From the NCBI GenBank assembly GCA_951406725.2, contig OX597833.1, positions 65,162,001 to 65,226,000 of the forward strand: a stretch of 64,000 nt of DNA, in the 5' to 3' direction. The position numbers were made by a program, and so were the translations under genes. This DNA comes from Octopus vulgaris. Its lineage: Eukaryota. Shown piece after piece: positions 4,765 to 48,043 of the stretch; the stretch's first letter is position 1, and each line of letters starts with the position of its first letter. The notes under the pieces are model-generated. The model did not search any database. It saw only the letters and a list, made by a program, of their open reading frames with translations, and had not been told where the DNA came from.

Positions 4765-5215
4765 ATTTCTCCTCTCACGTGACCGCTGGCCAACCAGCCT
4801 TTCAGCTTCTGGCCGGCGCCGTGAGACCATCGTTGTCTTCGTCTGCCGAAAAAGGCATTTTTTTCCAAAATACGCCAGTTAAACTAAGTTGTACTGTCTA
4901 TTAGTCGTAAGACACCCGCTGTTTTTGTCCTGTAATTACTATTATTGTTTTTTTGTATTTTATATTCGTCTGGCATCGTCCGGTTTTCTGTCCCTGTTTC
5001 GTATATATTCGATCCTTTTTGCAAGAAATCGAATGCTCGTAGCTTAGTTTTTCCTTGGGGCTGGTCGGATCGGAGCGATCTCAAGATTAATCGGCCGAAA
5101 TTGCTAGGATGATCCGGTTCTTGACTGAAGATTGAAGGCTTCGAATGTCCCGTCCGTGTTTTTTGTATCGTCTTCTAAATGTTTTACGTTCTTGTCCCAG
5201 TTTGTATTTTTCTAC
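4765..5215 (+). mobile_element. Non-coding repeat in (TA)n, homologous to 23110-23560; Penelope-like terminal repeat suspected
   Basis: Shared blocks cacgtgacc, ttagtc..aagacaccc, aatc..tgctc, ggggctgg, ccgaaattgc, cccgtcc, ttgtatcgtct, ctaaatgtttt in the same order in both copies. Both are flanked by (TA)n. Confidence 0.7.
5059..5144 (+). ncRNA. Candidate non-circularly permuted hammerhead-like ribozyme, copy 1
   Basis: TC site 5079-5080, GAAA 5097-5100, CTGAAGA 5125-5131. Helices tcaaga/tcttga, agcgat/attgct, ggctggt/atcggcc. Confidence 0.5.
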
Positions 5216-5237
5216 ATATATATATATATATATATAT

Positions 5238-23040: not shown

Positions 23041-23109
<69 letters not shown>

Positions 23110-23114
<5 letters not shown>

Positions 23115-23690
23115 CACAAAAATAGGAGAAGAACGCAAAATATCCTGACAGGTGATACAAAAAAGGGACAACAAAACATTTAGACAGACGATACAAAGAA
23201 AATAAGGACGGGTCATTCGGAGATTTCGTTCCTCAGTAGAGTTTCAGATTATCTTTGCAATTTCGGTTGGTTATACTCAAGATTGCTCCAGTCTGGCCAG
23301 CCCCGCCCCAAAAAAAACTAACTTAGGAGCACTAGATTCCTTGGATGAAAGCAGCGATTGTATATGAAAACAAGGATGAACAAAGAACAGAGAAATGGTA
23401 CACAAATACAAGTAAAAGGACATTAACCACGGGTGTCTTTAGACTAAGGACGAATTAAATTAAGCTAGCGTGTGCTGAAGTAAAGCCTTAAGGCGGGGAC
23501 AGGTGATTTCGTAGGCAGAAGGAAGAATATAGATGTTGCACGGATGGTCACGTGGGGAGAGAAGAGAAGAGGCAGAGGGATAGAAGAATTAAGGAGGAGT
23601 GAGAAAAACTGAGAGGGACTGAGTGAAGTAAAAGAGGAGAGAAGATGAGCATGAAGAGAAGGCCAGGAAATATGAGAGAGGGGGAATGAA
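23110..23690 (-). mobile_element. Second diverged copy of the 4765-5215 repeat family
   Basis: Reverse complement is colinear with 4775-5200; bounded by (TA)n on both sides. Confidence 0.7.
23218..23302 (-). ncRNA. Candidate non-circularly permuted hammerhead-like ribozyme, copy 2
   Basis: Minus strand ggctgg..gcaaTC-ttgagt-ataa-ccaacc-GAAA-ttgc..actcta-CTGAGGA. Same order as copy 1 with compensatory changes and two single mismatches. Confidence 0.45.
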
Positions 23691-23768
23691 AGAACGAAGT
23701 GTATATATATATATACATATACACGAAAGAACGAAGAGTATATATATATATACACGAAAGAACAAAGA

Positions 23769-42585: not shown

Positions 42586-42936
42586 ACGTTCTGGCAGATT
42601 CCAACGTGAATATGTGATCGCTGTTGTTTTCCATCATCGGAGAGCCACTCCATGGATGTAAGGCAAAGATGACCTCGGCAGAATTTGGACTCAGTACGTA
42701 AAACTGGACAAAAGCCACGCATATGTAATAATGCTACGGTTAATTGTCGATGAACATAATAGTAATATATTAGTACTGCAGAATCATTTTAACCGAGATG
42801 CTTCCGGTATACAATACCACCATTACAATATATTGGTTACAAATTTTGGCACAAAGCCAGCAGTCCTGAGTAAGGGGATGCGTTCTGTCCTTATTTGTCC
42901 TCTCTATGTTTAGCCCCTTGTGGGCAGTAACGAATA

Positions 42937-42985
<49 letters not shown>

Positions 42986-43046
42986 ATTATTATTAATATT
43001 ATTATTATTATTATTATTATTATCATTATTATCATTATTATTATTA

Positions 43047-43727
43047 AAATAACTCTAGAAGATGTGAAAAGAGCGAAGGAATTGTTAAGAAAGGATGGCA
43101 ATGGTATCTTCCTCAATACTCCACAAGAGGTGATTGAAAGCACCAACAAGCAAACAATAATTTACAAAGTTTTCGACAGAAAACTAAAAAGAATAACAAA
43201 TGCCACACCCCAACAGTTGGAGATAGCTCTAAAGCCCATTTGGGCCCAAAAGAGCTACGTAACCAAGGGGAAGCGTTTTGGAACCGTGGAGGTTCGCTTC
43301 CCAACAGAGGAGCTGGCAAGGGCGAACGCCATTTCGCCCTTGCAAACTGAGAATTTGTTACTAATTCCAACCCACCTCGGGCGAAGAGTTACAAAAATAA
43401 AAATCGACCTCGTCCCCCCTGAATTAAATATGTCATGGCTGGTGGCAGCTGTCCTCTATGATATAGAGGACACTACCACCATTCTAGATGTCAGGAGAGT
43501 GAGGGCGAAAAACTGGTTGGGGATGGGAGTGCTGCTTCTTGCGCAAATTCAGCAAGAGAATATAAGTAAAGTCCCTGATTTCGTAAGTTTGCCGGACGGC
43601 ACTAGGCTAAACGTTGCTGTGGAGGGGCGAAAGCCAAAATGCTTTCTCTGCAGCAGCGAAAGCCACTTAAAGAGGGACTGTCCCATTCACAAAAAGAGGA
43701 TGGAGGCTTTCAGCAAGAGGCAGCAGC

Positions 43728-43758
<31 letters not shown>

Positions 43759-44569
43759 CAAGCAACAACAACAGAAACAAAAAAAACAGCAAGAAACACC
43801 AAAGGCTGCCACACCACCAACACCATCACCAACACCAGCACCAAGACGAGCAACACCACCTCCAACAACAACAACCACCACCAAACCAACACCGACAACC
43901 ACCACCAAACCAACACCGACACCAGTACCTCGAAGGTCGACAGCAGCGACATCAACAGTAACAGGAGCAGCGGCACCACCGATACCGGTGGAACCAGAAA
44001 CTTTTCGTCCTGCTACTGAAGCAGACCCCTCAACCATTCCTTTGCCGGATGAAGAGATCTCGGATTGTGCGAGCTCTGATTCCAACAAAGGAGAATGGAG
44101 TATAGTGCCTCCAAAGAAGAAAAGGAGGAAGAAACAAAAAGATTTACAGGGGAAGCACGAACAAATAGTGCTTCCCAACATCAACAACAACAACAACAAC
44201 AACAACACACACTCACAACAACAAACAACAACAACACTTTCGACACCACTACTGCCACTGCCACACACACAAACACACACAGACACAATTACATCAATAA
44301 ACACAAAGAACCAAAAACTAGTGGAGTACTTAAAAAACAAAACTAGTACAAATATAACCGATTTCATCATACCAACACAAAACACACCACCAGCACACAT
44401 TCTCACAATAAAAATAAATGCAAAATCATATGATGAAATCAAACAAATATTCCCTAACGATGTGGGATCGCTAGGGAAAAGTTTCTCGAAGAAACTTTAT
44501 AAAAACATTGTGGAAGCACCCGTGCAAAAGCACAAGGGAGCCACCCCCACCACCAACAACAGTAAGTAG
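43047..44569 (+). CDS. ORF1 nucleic-acid-binding (gag-like) protein, probably 5'-truncated
   Basis: Open frame with RRM-like region (GTVEVRFPTEELA), zinc knuckle CFLCSSESHLKRDC (CX2CX4HX4C), Q/T/P-rich linker and basic PPKKKRRKKQK. No ATG at the 5' junction; the track's poly-Ile N-terminus is read-through of flanking (ATT)n. Confidence 0.85.
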
Positions 44570-44608
44570 AGCTTTTTTTTCTCCTTTTTTTTTCCCCTAC
44601 TTTGAGAC

Positions 44609-47600
44609 ATGGCAAATCTTAGAATCGGTTGCTTGAATGTGAGAGGCCTCGGGTCACCTTGGAAACAGGGTCACCTGTTAAACGACCTGAGGTTTCATGA
44701 TGTGGATGTAGCAGCCATCAGTGAAACCAGACTCTCCGATCCGCAGGAACTCGCAGCCCTTTTCGGCGGATACGAGATATTTCTATCTCCGTGTCGGCCG
44801 GGAGCGGGCGGTGGTGGTACTGCGGTGTTGTTTCGGAAGGGCCTGGACCTGAAAATAAGGACAGTCTTCTTGGATCCGGAAGGTAAGTTGGTGGTCCTCG
44901 ACGTCGACGGTAGTGACGGCGGTGCTTTCAGACTGCTGGCTGCCTACGCTCCGACAGGAGCAGGGCAGTCGGATTATTTCAAACGTCTGGAAGTTTTCCT
45001 GGGAACGTCACGCACTCTAGTACTAGTTGGGGATTGGAACGCTGTCTTAGACGAACGTTTCGATCGGGTGGGCAGGGGAGCGTCTGTTAGGAGAGGGGGA
45101 GGGTGCAAGAGCCTCGCCAACCTACTCGGCCGCTTTCAGCTGTCCGACAGGTTTCGACTAGACAACCCGAATGTGCCAATGTGGACTTGGACAAACCGCA
45201 TCGGGTCGTCTAGATCGTACTTAGATAGAGTGTTTTGTAGGCCAGCGGATAAGGACAGCGTAGGGTGTCCACAATTCCACCTAGTCGAATATACGGACCA
45301 CAAATTAGTGATCTGTACGGTCGACTTAGATAGGCTACATAGACAGGGACCCGGCTACTGGAAGCTGAACGCGTCGTTAACGGCGTGCAAAGCTTACAGA
45401 GACCGGATTAGTTTACTAGTTAAGCGGGCGCTCACGGGGGCAATCATCAACAACAACTGGTGGTTTGCCCTCAAGAGAGCAATTAGAGTAGAGTCGATTA
45501 GGTATAGTAAGACTCTAGCTATTGAACGTAGGAAGAGAGAGCGGGATTTAGTTAAGAAACTAGACGAGGCTCTTGACACTGGCATCGCGACCGACGTGTT
45601 GGCGGCAAGGTTGGCCCTCGACCAACACTTCGACGCCAAACACGAAGGCTGCGTTGTCAGAGCTAAGGCACGTTCGCTAAGCGGGGAGGGGACTAGAGCC
45701 GCTCGATGGGCCCGCGTGGCGGAGGCGAAGCGAGGCAACAGAGCAACCATTCGGTCTTTGGTGGACCAGAACGGGCGCGAGGTTACCCAACCGAAGCAGA
45801 TGTGTACGGTGCTTCAGCGGCACTTTGCTCAACTGTTTGGGACGAGCGGTGGAACGGACACCAACGGTACAGACTTCGGTGTGTACCTGGACGGACTGCC
45901 GCAACTCTCGGACAGCGAGGCAGAGTGCTGCGAAGGACCGATATCTGCCTGGGAAGTACAGGAAGCGATGAAGAGTTGCACGAGAGGTAGATCGCCGGGT
46001 TTGGATGGTCTGCCCTACGAGCTTTACTTTTCAATGCCAGACTTGTTTGCGGACCTGTTGGCAAACGTCTACTGCAACTGGCAGCAAAACTGGAGAATTC
46101 CTGCTTTTGTCTGTCGAGGGGTGGTGGCTTTGCTAAAGAAGGACCCAAACAAGGGGGACGTTATAGGGAATTTCCGGCCCATCACTCTGCTCAATGCAGA
46201 GTTGAAGATTTTGGCCAAGGTGCTAGCCAAGAGATTGGCGCTTGTCGTGGACAAGCTGGTCGGCGGGACGCAGACATGCGCCGTGCCGACCAGGTCGATA
46301 CACGACAACCTCCATCTCATGCGCTACATCATAGAGAGGGTGGGTAACGACGCTGGCGCGGGTGGGGCTTTGATCAACTTGGATCAGAGTAAAGCCTTCG
46401 ATAGGGTCGACCATCAGTACCTGGCAGCTGTCCTCAAGGCAGCCGGCTTCGGTCCAGTCTTCCGCGGGTGGATCGCTGCTTTATACAGCAACATCTGCTC
46501 GGTGATACGGGTGAACGGTCACCTTTCGGAACCGTTCGACATCTCGCGTTCGGTCCGCCAAGGATGCCCTCTCTCCTCCCTCTTGTACATTTTGACTCTC
46601 GAGCCATTACTGCGCAAGTTGGAGGCTTTGAGGGGCATCCCGCGCGATCTAGGAGGCGGAAACAGCGTGTCTGCTTATGCCGACGACGTCACCGTGGTGG
46701 TGTCGAGCCACAGGCACATTAGCCTGATTGGCGAGACGCTAAACCAGTACGAAGCGGTGACAGGGGCAAAGATTAACGCGGAAAAGTCTGTGGGCTTGCA
46801 ACTGGGCACCTGGAGAGGCAAGCCCATGCCGTCCAACAGCGTCGTAGGGCGCTGGACAGACGGACCCGTTAAACTGCTCGGGGTCTGGTTCGGTCCGGAC
46901 CTCCAGGTGGATAAGAACTGGGAAGAGGTGACGAGCAGAGTGGCACGTCTCACCCAGAAATGGGCCGAGAGGAAGCTGTCCCTGAAAGGTCGAGCGGAGG
47001 TGGCGAATGCGTACATCGCATCCGTCATCTATTACCGCTTGACCGTCGTCCCTTGTCCCAACCGCTGGTTGGCCAAGCTGGTACGTCTGCTCTTCGACTT
47101 TTTGTGGAAGGGTCAGGTGCCACTGGTCAGGCGATCCATCTGCTGTCAACGACCGCTGAACGGAGGCCTTGGAATGCCGTGGTTGCTGTTGCGCAGACAT
47201 GCGCTCAGGCTGCGGCATCTCAAGCGCTTCCTAGACGGTGAACAGGTGTGGTCGTCTTTTGTCAGACGCGATTTTCCGCAGCTCGTCTCTTTGACGGAGC
47301 TGCAGACCTGGATCAAACGTAGACCGAGAAAGGGCGCTTGGCACCTCGAGTGCCGTCAAGCCCTCTCCGCCCTCCACCAGGCGGGCAATGCGGTCGGTTA
47401 CAGCTCCACTCTAGCGTTCTATAGAGGGTTAGTGGAGGAAAAATGCGACGACGTTCTCGGGGAAACTCTAGGCGTTGAAGACGACGAACTGAGCAGTCTG
47501 TTCGGGAGGACTTTCGGGCCGGGGCCGATGGATAATTTCCAGAGGTCTCTCGCCTGGCAGTGCTACCGAGGGGCTCTGCCTGTTCGAGATAAACTCTACC

Positions 47601-48043
47601 GGCACGGAAGTGCCGTCAGCCGGGCCTGCCCGAGGTGTTGCCAGGACGACGAAACCGTTCTGCACGCACTCGTCCAGTGCCCGAGTATTGCTGAAATATG
47701 GGTTTATGTCGAACAGCTACTGTCACGTGTAGGACGGATCCGACTATCGGCCGAATCCATAGTGAAGATTGCCCCGCCGACCTCCTTTAACAAGGAGGGC
47801 GAGGCCGTTTTCTTGTGCCTAGTGGCTGTGGCGAAAGAGGTCGTGTGGTGGACTCGTTTAAAAGGGCTAAAGACAGACACTTTCCTCTTTGGTCAAGGCC
47901 TCATCAACTTTTTCAAGTTTCACTTGAAAAGGAAGATGAGGTTAGAGAGGAAAGTGCTGTCCGATAGCAAGTTTTATGAAAGGTGGGTGAATTGTGCGAG
48001 ACTGGCCTGTATAAATGGACCAGTTCTCAGGTTTCGCCTGTGA
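44609..48043 (+). CDS. ORF2 polyprotein: apurinic-like endonuclease, reverse transcriptase, C-terminal CCHC finger (1144 aa, uninterrupted)
   Basis: APE motifs CLNVRGL, ISETRL, YAP, VGDWNAV, YLDRVF, TDHKLV. RT motifs WKLN, SPGLDGLP, FRPITLLN, LDQSKAFDRVDH, VRQGCPLS, YADD, LLGV. C-terminal CPRC-x8-H-x4-C. Confidence 0.96.
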   Translation: MANLRIGCLNVRGLGSPWKQGHLLNDLRFHDVDVAAISETRLSDPQELAALFGGYEIFLSPCRPGAGGGGTAVLFRKGLDLKIRTVFLDPEGKLVVLDVDGSDGGAFRLLAAYAPTGAGQSDYFKRLEVFLGTSRTLVLVGDWNAVLDERFDRVGRGASVRRGGGCKSLANLLGRFQLSDRFRLDNPNVPMWTWTNRIGSSRSYLDRVFCRPADKDSVGCPQFHLVEYTDHKLVICTVDLDRLHRQGPGYWKLNASLTACKAYRDRISLLVKRALTGAIINNNWWFALKRAIRVESIRYSKTLAIERRKRERDLVKKLDEALDTGIATDVLAARLALDQHFDAKHEGCVVRAKARSLSGEGTRAARWARVAEAKRGNRATIRSLVDQNGREVTQPKQMCTVLQRHFAQLFGTSGGTDTNGTDFGVYLDGLPQLSDSEAECCEGPISAWEVQEAMKSCTRGRSPGLDGLPYELYFSMPDLFADLLANVYCNWQQNWRIPAFVCRGVVALLKKDPNKGDVIGNFRPITLLNAELKILAKVLAKRLALVVDKLVGGTQTCAVPTRSIHDNLHLMRYIIERVGNDAGAGGALINLDQSKAFDRVDHQYLAAVLKAAGFGPVFRGWIAALYSNICSVIRVNGHLSEPFDISRSVRQGCPLSSLLYILTLEPLLRKLEALRGIPRDLGGGNSVSAYADDVTVVVSSHRHISLIGETLNQYEAVTGAKINAEKSVGLQLGTWRGKPMPSNSVVGRWTDGPVKLLGVWFGPDLQVDKNWEEVTSRVARLTQKWAERKLSLKGRAEVANAYIASVIYYRLTVVPCPNRWLAKLVRLLFDFLWKGQVPLVRRSICCQRPLNGGLGMPWLLLRRHALRLRHLKRFLDGEQVWSSFVRRDFPQLVSLTELQTWIKRRPRKGAWHLECRQALSALHQAGNAVGYSSTLAFYRGLVEEKCDDVLGETLGVEDDELSSLFGRTFGPGPMDNFQRSLAWQCYRGALPVRDKLYRHGSAVSRACPRCCQDDETVLHALVQCPSIAEIWVYVEQLLSRVGRIRLSAESIVKIAPPTSFNKEGEAVFLCLVAVAKEVVWWTRLKGLKTDTFLFGQGLINFFKFHLKRKMRLERKVLSDSKFYERWVNCARLACINGPVLRFRL

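Follow-up and report, generated by a model that had tools for sequence, protein, structure and literature searches.

RNA made from one locus in the Octopus vulgaris genome would carry the parts of a hammerhead ribozyme in an unfamiliar order, which raises the question of how these parts could fold and whether the locus, or the family to which it belongs, encodes a ribozyme at all. The window that we analysed is a 64,000-nucleotide stretch of contig OX597833.1. An initial annotation had described, on its minus strand, a second and diverged copy of a permuted hammerhead. All segments named there are located at 23230-23302, and the equivalents in the first copy (copy 1) lie at 5059-5131 on the plus strand. 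The motif is found within the span 23218..23302 that had been assigned to it, but the full fold is wider, extending over ~23214-23360 with helices IV and V. This locus is very probably a decayed copy of a non-coding repeat of Penelope type, whose RNA is predicted to form a hammerhead in S-G-C order that is opened between A9 and G10.1, and intact members of which would cut at an AUC triplet.

The described differences from copy 1 are present: stem I carries two both-sided changes and one U.U mismatch, a G.U pair in stem III is replaced by A-U, and N7 is the sole difference in the CUGANGA core. Bare CUGANGA heptamers occur in the window at chance level (25 versus 21.2 expected). Rfam yielded no match within the 64-kb window, and five Naiad proteins gave no tblastn match to it. 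Elsewhere in the window, positions 42914-48040 (+) hold two long open frames of 551 and 1145 aa, the longer of which resembles, by eye, the endonuclease-RT frame of an apparently intact LINE.

Table 1. Parts of the decayed copy and location of copy 1 (window coordinates).
Feature	Position	Strand	Basis
Decayed, 5'-truncated copy of non-coding repeat, subfamily 2, ending in (TA)n	23109..23702	-	blastn to subfamily-2 unit, 77% over 632 columns
Helix IV, 5' strand; two pairs broken here	23345..23360	-	
Hairpin V; three pairs broken here	23308..23344	-	
Stem II, 5' strand, displaced upstream of cleavage block; G10.1 is 23302	23297..23302	-	
Helix x 5' strand (23290-23296) and GA of kink-turn-like loop	23287..23296	-	
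Block S: stem III 3' strand, AUC triplet, stem I 3' strand	23275..23286	-	
Predicted cut	between 23281 and 23280	-	analogy with hammerhead core; 5'-end pile-up
4-nt linker and block G: stem II 3' strand, GAAA (23261-23264), stem III 5' strand	23257..23274	-	
3-nt bulge, GA of kink-turn-like loop and helix x 3' strand; two pairs broken	23244..23256	-	
Stem I 5' strand (U.U at position 2) and CUGAGGA core (23230-23236)	23230..23242	-	
Helix IV, 3' strand, directly after A9	23214..23229	-	
Copy 1, of young subfamily 1; undamaged core and stems I-III, motif at 5006-5147, cut predicted to follow 5080	4768..5228	+	

Hammerheads can be described by three blocks, S, G and C, as defined by Eckert et al. 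2023 (PMC10085705), who assumed, in the accessible part of that paper, that CUGANGA and its flanking paired strands are inseparable, and who validated types SGC and CSG in vitro, where both forms cleave. Read 5' to 3', the octopus motif consists of the helix IV 5' strand, hairpin V, the stem II 5' strand, x', the stem III 3' strand with the UH site and the stem I 3' strand, a 4-nt linker, the stem II 3' strand with GAAA and the stem III 5' strand, x, the stem I 5' strand with CUGANGA, and the helix IV 3' strand. The blocks therefore stand in the order site-GAAA-CUGANGA (S-G-C), as in type-SGC hammerheads, and HRIMA-1 and its variants (PMC10085705) share with our motif the full core, an extra helix by which stems I and II are connected at their outer ends, and a short linker between these stems (1-5 nt here, typically 3 in type SGC). 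The two differ in block C. In the type-SGC forms shown there, block C is unbroken, with a stem II strand 0-2 nt after CUGANGA, whereas here the stem II 5' strand lies upstream and helix IV, with or without V, is inserted at A9/G10.1, an added helix replacing the backbone link. The strand after A9 has only 0-3 possible pairs with the stem II 3' strand in 16 of 16 correctly parsed cases, against 5-6 for the upstream strand, beginning from G10.1-C11.1, and 23214..23229 occupies the place where stem II would begin in any described hammerhead. In the predicted junction, A9 would run into helix IV, the partner strand of IV would stack on V, and V would run into G10.1. Hairpin V adjoins G10.1 directly in intact copies, and the present copy has a few extra bases at 23303-23307. 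In subfamily 4 (L424, L487), inspection reveals no hairpin V, so helix IV alone may suffice to join A9 and G10.1.

The core (CUGANGA, GAAA, UH and A15.1-U16.1) is present in all 17 representatives and is intact in this copy. Stems I, II and III flank it with covariation, and the copy has one break in stem I and one in stem II, the latter a G-to-A change at position 3 of the 3' strand. The canonical types I, II and III, with their cyclic order C-G-S and no pseudoknots among stems I-III, do not describe the motif, and a canonical or minimal type I reading was rejected on either strand, there being no stem II after the core. The letters assigned to a linker mini-hairpin make better sense as part of a longer helix, x, whose 3' strand they form by pairing with 23290-23296; x covaries (5/7 pairs), and the hairpin was replaced accordingly. 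The nested minimum free energy (MFE) structure of an intact young copy contains helices IV, V, x and III, with the strands of stems I and II remaining free. MFE z-scores (-1.8 for the intact copy, -0.25 for copy 1 and +1.7 for this copy) are uninformative because the fold is pseudoknotted.

In the kink-turn consensus, two stems enclose a 3-nt bulge and, after it, tandem G.A/A.G pairs. A similar pattern, at the level of sequence, lies between III and x in subfamilies 1-4; it is not evident in most of the metagenome motifs described below.

We scored covariation in a MAFFT alignment of 25 copies (24 distinct) from four subfamilies, hand-chosen from fetched loci. Paired states fill 93.5% of 568 cells, which are not independent events because the copies are related, and both-sided changes affect 15 of the 24 pairs and occur in each of the four helices tested. 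When partners are slid, 17-41% of cells are paired and 1-4 pairs change on both sides, and the covariation score falls from 0.446 to 0.02-0.08. Between subfamilies 1 and 2 there are 29 differing columns, and the core contains none of these. Paired columns mutate as fast as unpaired ones inside subfamilies 1, 1b and 2 (Fisher p 0.28, 0.29 and 0.68), and CpG sites change faster.

In the majority sequence of 42 subfamily-2 copies, stem II is restored and stem I pairs throughout, which is what the initial annotation had predicted of a consensus. Relative to this majority, the present copy has 17 private differences, by which nine pairs are broken, and it is not matched by a descriptor that detects copy 1. 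The changes once thought to have let a diverged copy keep its fold are fixed differences between subfamilies, and the proposed selection on RNA structure is supported for the lineage but not for the copy's own changes. These alignments indicate that selection on RNA structure acted on master lineages and that inserted copies decay neutrally. The present copy is likely to be inactive or weak as a ribozyme.

The host repeat consists of non-coding, pyrimidine-rich units of 680-830 nt inserted in (TA)n, and its copies are found 5'-truncated, inverted and head-to-tail. The unit to which the two window copies belong measures ~750-830 nt. A tight pattern for the repeat has 7,602 exact matches in the genome versus one for a control, and pieces of the repeat occur in 3 of 20 arbitrarily chosen 10-kb stretches. 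Among the subfamily-1 copies, 75 of 98 terminate in a TA, CA or TAA run, and 17 of 98 have a short tail or read into the next unit. Such (TA)n ends with an optional tail are a signature of Penelope-like elements (PMC8557442 and PMC11167929, accessible portions), and the repeat combines them with the 5' truncation and the inverted and tandem copies of a non-autonomous Penelope-type element. Subfamilies 1 and 4 are young, with 98-99% identity, and in subfamily 4 all 40 scored matches are at least 98% identical. Its loci L487 and L424 (C27:25.60 Mb and C5:13.13 Mb) contain a ~680-nt unit in arrays. Near the unit start in L175:6042-6871 (-), a splice-donor-like GTAAGT is followed by a long pyrimidine tract, a sequence pattern that resembles the 5' intron of Penelope elements.

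A Penelope-like parent with RT and GIY-YIG had been expected upstream. Walking upstream leads instead to a non-coding tandem unit without either, and the link to Penelope-like elements is made through Naiads. The features of a Naiad ORF (N-terminal GIY-YIG, CxC, DKA and C-terminal RT) are absent, since the repeat has no ORF. It nevertheless resembles Naiads, as presented in the accessible part of PMC8557442, in that it targets (TA)n, may carry a short tail and occurs in tandem and inverted copies, and Naiad consensus sequences bear the same fold at their 3' end. In the same text, Craig et al. 2021 describe Naiads as having no canonical hammerhead, and mark only "HHR_core" and "HHR_half_core".

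To follow this link beyond the octopus, we used an RT alignment to search metagenomes, and fetched the best 80 of 443 relatives (240 kb). The full layout occurs 3' of the RT match on the sense strand in 14 of these 80 Naiad-like loci, and there are no matches on the antisense strand of the 240 kb or in 20 shuffles thereof. These 14 motifs lie 117-1806 nt after the RT match and differ in their stem letters (median identity 0.56, top pair 0.80). G10.1-C11.1 and A15.1-U16.1 are present in 17 of 17 motifs, but pairing in descriptor matches is selected by construction, and the independent parts are the controls and helices IV and V. The latter, which the descriptor does not demand, are found at the A9/G10.1 joint in 15 of 17 motifs, versus 39 of 272 mismatched partners. 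The endonuclease (EN) precedes RT in seven of the 14 matches, is not seen in six and is reversed by motif in one, and the DKA motif is present in 11.

The opened motif is absent from 66 of the 80 loci, including 28 of the 39 with at least 600 nt after the RT match, and 65 of the 80 carry neither the opened nor the CSG motif. An unbroken type-CSG hammerhead lies ~1.1 kb after a Naiad-like RT at L392:3473-3538 (+). It is the one CSG form among the 28 motif-less loci (within L332-L411, at least 600 nt); the others may hold different ribozymes. Rfam gave no match in the 20 metagenome loci scanned. Several further features of these loci were noted. In L346, L349, L378, L388, L391 and L409, Naiad-like frames run on past the RT motif for 524-578 aa rather than ~200, and L378 shows a GIY-like motif beyond its RT. 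L386, at 190-380 nt beyond the RT match, combines a pair of CUGANGA cores with strands like those of a hammerhead. Outside this set, L176:8790-8900 (-) holds a motif whose blocks follow the order seen here, with letters that are unrelated and a core that is followed by a competing pairing; it possibly represents a further family. L176 and L386 were excluded from all counts.

In the octopus genome itself, 3 of 30 Naiad RT loci (L417, L426 and L441), all broken remnants, have the motif on their own strand, ~1 to 1.2 kb downstream. Motifs from a published octopus Naiad also have exact matches in this genome, 400 in one search and one in another. Published Naiad consensus tails, in the accessible part of the PMC8557442 supplement, contain the opened layout by eye in ten cases: Bfor (with only two pairs in stem I), Amil, Aacu, Anas, Obim, Ovul and four unnamed excerpts. 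Six other tails, three of them named as nematode families, have the unbroken CSG form by eye. For one core heptamer this reading took in 56 of its 62 occurrences, and for each of the other three it took in 10; it is no census of the 54 families.

Which element moves the repeat today is a separate question. The ribozyme may have been taken from a Naiad long ago, with the repeat now moved by intact Penelope-like families in which RT precedes the endonuclease; we regard this as a serious possibility, somewhat short of an even one, that concerns parentage only. Three such families with RT before GIY-YIG (L123-L132, L192-L200 and L443-L453) have intact frames of 781, 784 and ~1100 aa, and several lie in (TA)n, whereas Naiad matches are broken even though subfamilies 1 and 4 are young. 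A type-I-like hammerhead variant is visible by eye near the 3' end of the L443-L453 family, and none is evident in the other two. Against their role, blastn reveals no 3' end or tail in common with the repeat beyond pyrimidine-rich sequence. The parent searches of the genome used GIY-YIG (148 matches, 20 extended), the Naiad endonuclease (150 matches, 20 extended) and the Naiad RT (131 matches, 30 loci plus 20 extended); among the best-scored candidates they recovered intact RT-EN families whose 3' ends differ from that of the repeat, Naiads in broken form only, and no coding element with the repeat's 3' end. As only the best candidates were scored, a rare intact Naiad may have been missed. 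One match, L444, was rejected as a parent and is an older copy of the repeat. A homologous-protein search with the endonuclease piece found no match, and viral contigs contained no relative. Among the loci of the repeat family, Naiad proteins had one weak tblastn match (L254), away from the copy.

If the RNA of intact members cleaves itself, the 5' ends of inserted copies might retain a trace. Copies were chosen by their 3' tail so as not to select on the ribozyme; for subfamily 1, the first 100 of 1,865 tail matches led to 90 fetched loci and 98 distinct copies. Of these, 38 start between -3 and +21 nt from the predicted cut, 8.2-fold over the rate elsewhere (p ~1e-17); three of the 38, at -3, are ambiguous with a TA run, and automated tracing extended L212 and L214, at the least, further upstream although by eye they stop near +5, which makes 38 a low count. 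In subfamily 2, 9 of 30 copies (sampled from 282 matches, with two rows representing one duplicated insertion) start at the site, a 5.1-fold excess (p 5e-4).

It is improbable, in our judgment, that the RNA is instead a conserved fold that does not cut, either a relic or a protein-binding structure, and that the ends result from RT stalling, AT microhomology, a protein nuclease or internal transcription start. Such a fold would agree with the 45 of 83 copies that reach the site and run through it, from which it follows that cleavage is not needed for copying. It would also agree with the base composition, since the bin after the site is AT-rich (0.68) and (TA)n microhomology confounds the sharp edge taken by itself because the 25 nt directly upstream are GC-rich (AT 0.24). 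However, equally AT-rich bins upstream collect only 3/40, 0/34 and 0/34 ends, and few ends (7/90) fall at +22..+67, where RT first meets the structure with its pseudoknots. The pile-up stops, in two subfamilies, at the nucleotide predicted from the fold alone, and 17 sequences that differ in their stems retain every core nucleotide and a UH site. More doubtful still is a ribozyme formed across repeats, in which CUGANGA would borrow a stem II strand from the following unit, a circle or a dimer, as an SGC form with a very long insert, and the monomeric linear RNA would be silent: the family does occur in head-to-tail arrays (eight motifs at C6:85.54 Mb) and dimer-dependent hammerheads are known in Penelope elements (PMC4209133), but a single copy has all of its strands within 65-94 nt, self-closed by helix IV, and each of the 14 metagenome loci has one motif.

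We favor cleavage within a single unit, and the pile-up of 5' ends is likely to be indirect evidence of self-cleavage by intact RNA. Several published observations bear on this reading. One extra nucleotide separating position 9 from 10.1 is common in Penelope hammerheads (PMC4209133), and the AUC site, according to the accessible part of PMC1636495, is rare among natural hammerheads, yet active. The Poseidon element inserts in vitro without its hammerhead (PMC11167929, accessible part).

Under the proposed mechanism, read-through transcripts of tandem units would first fold IV, V, x and III, after which the free strands of stems I and II would close two pseudoknots. Helix IV, with V stacked on it where present, would hold A9 beside G10.1 in place of the backbone link, and an ordinary core could form. 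The RNAs produced by cleavage would begin at the site. In trans, an RT/endonuclease of Penelope type would prime ~100 nt downstream at (TA)n and copy to the cut end, giving many short copies, whereas RNA that is uncut, or circular after re-ligation, would give longer copies and head-to-tail arrays.

The opened form is likely to be a circular permutation of the CSG/SGC cycle, because other Naiads carry the unbroken CSG form. In type CSG, represented by two metagenome sequences in the accessible part of PMC10085705, the cyclic block order is the same as in our motif, but the core is contiguous and the cycle is opened elsewhere. Type-SGC forms are there known from metatranscriptomes, with none in genomes of known organisms. 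The PK hammerhead (Zhan et al. 2024, PMC11300833) is also a natural hammerhead with an extra helix and a pseudoknot; its pseudoknot arises from the helix II loop, the A9.G12 and G10.1-C11.1 pairs form a short stem, and the accessible text, unlike our model, describes no helix inserted at A9/G10.1. Animal non-LTR retrozymes likewise have non-coding tandem units with one hammerhead each, and are proposed to be non-autonomous Penelope derivatives (Li et al., bioRxiv 10.64898/2026.07.22.740005, accessible part). They are described there with the three classic hammerhead types, whereas our repeat has the opened type.

In the full-text literature, from which subscription journals are mostly absent, we found no description of a helix at A9/G10.1 or of a permuted hammerhead in Naiads, and the accessible portions of PMC13159263, PMC13725137, PMC10162972, PMC6154101, PMC3088659 and PMC12192606 contain neither. 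The conclusion that the motif wires a known class of ribozyme in a new way, the copy at this locus being dead, is well supported. With less assurance, we consider it reasonably probable that Naiads in several phyla of animals, together with the non-coding elements that travel with them, have a topology beyond the six permutations thought possible, in which the core is entered through A9-G10.1 by a helical junction; that this ribozyme is active in vivo and determines the 5' ends in about four of every ten young copies; and that it arose by circular permutation of the CSG ribozyme that other Naiads keep. A core that tolerates a helix at A9/G10.1 would offer a new insertion point for ribozyme switches, and the pile-up of 5' ends makes the role of hammerheads in Penelope elements directly testable.
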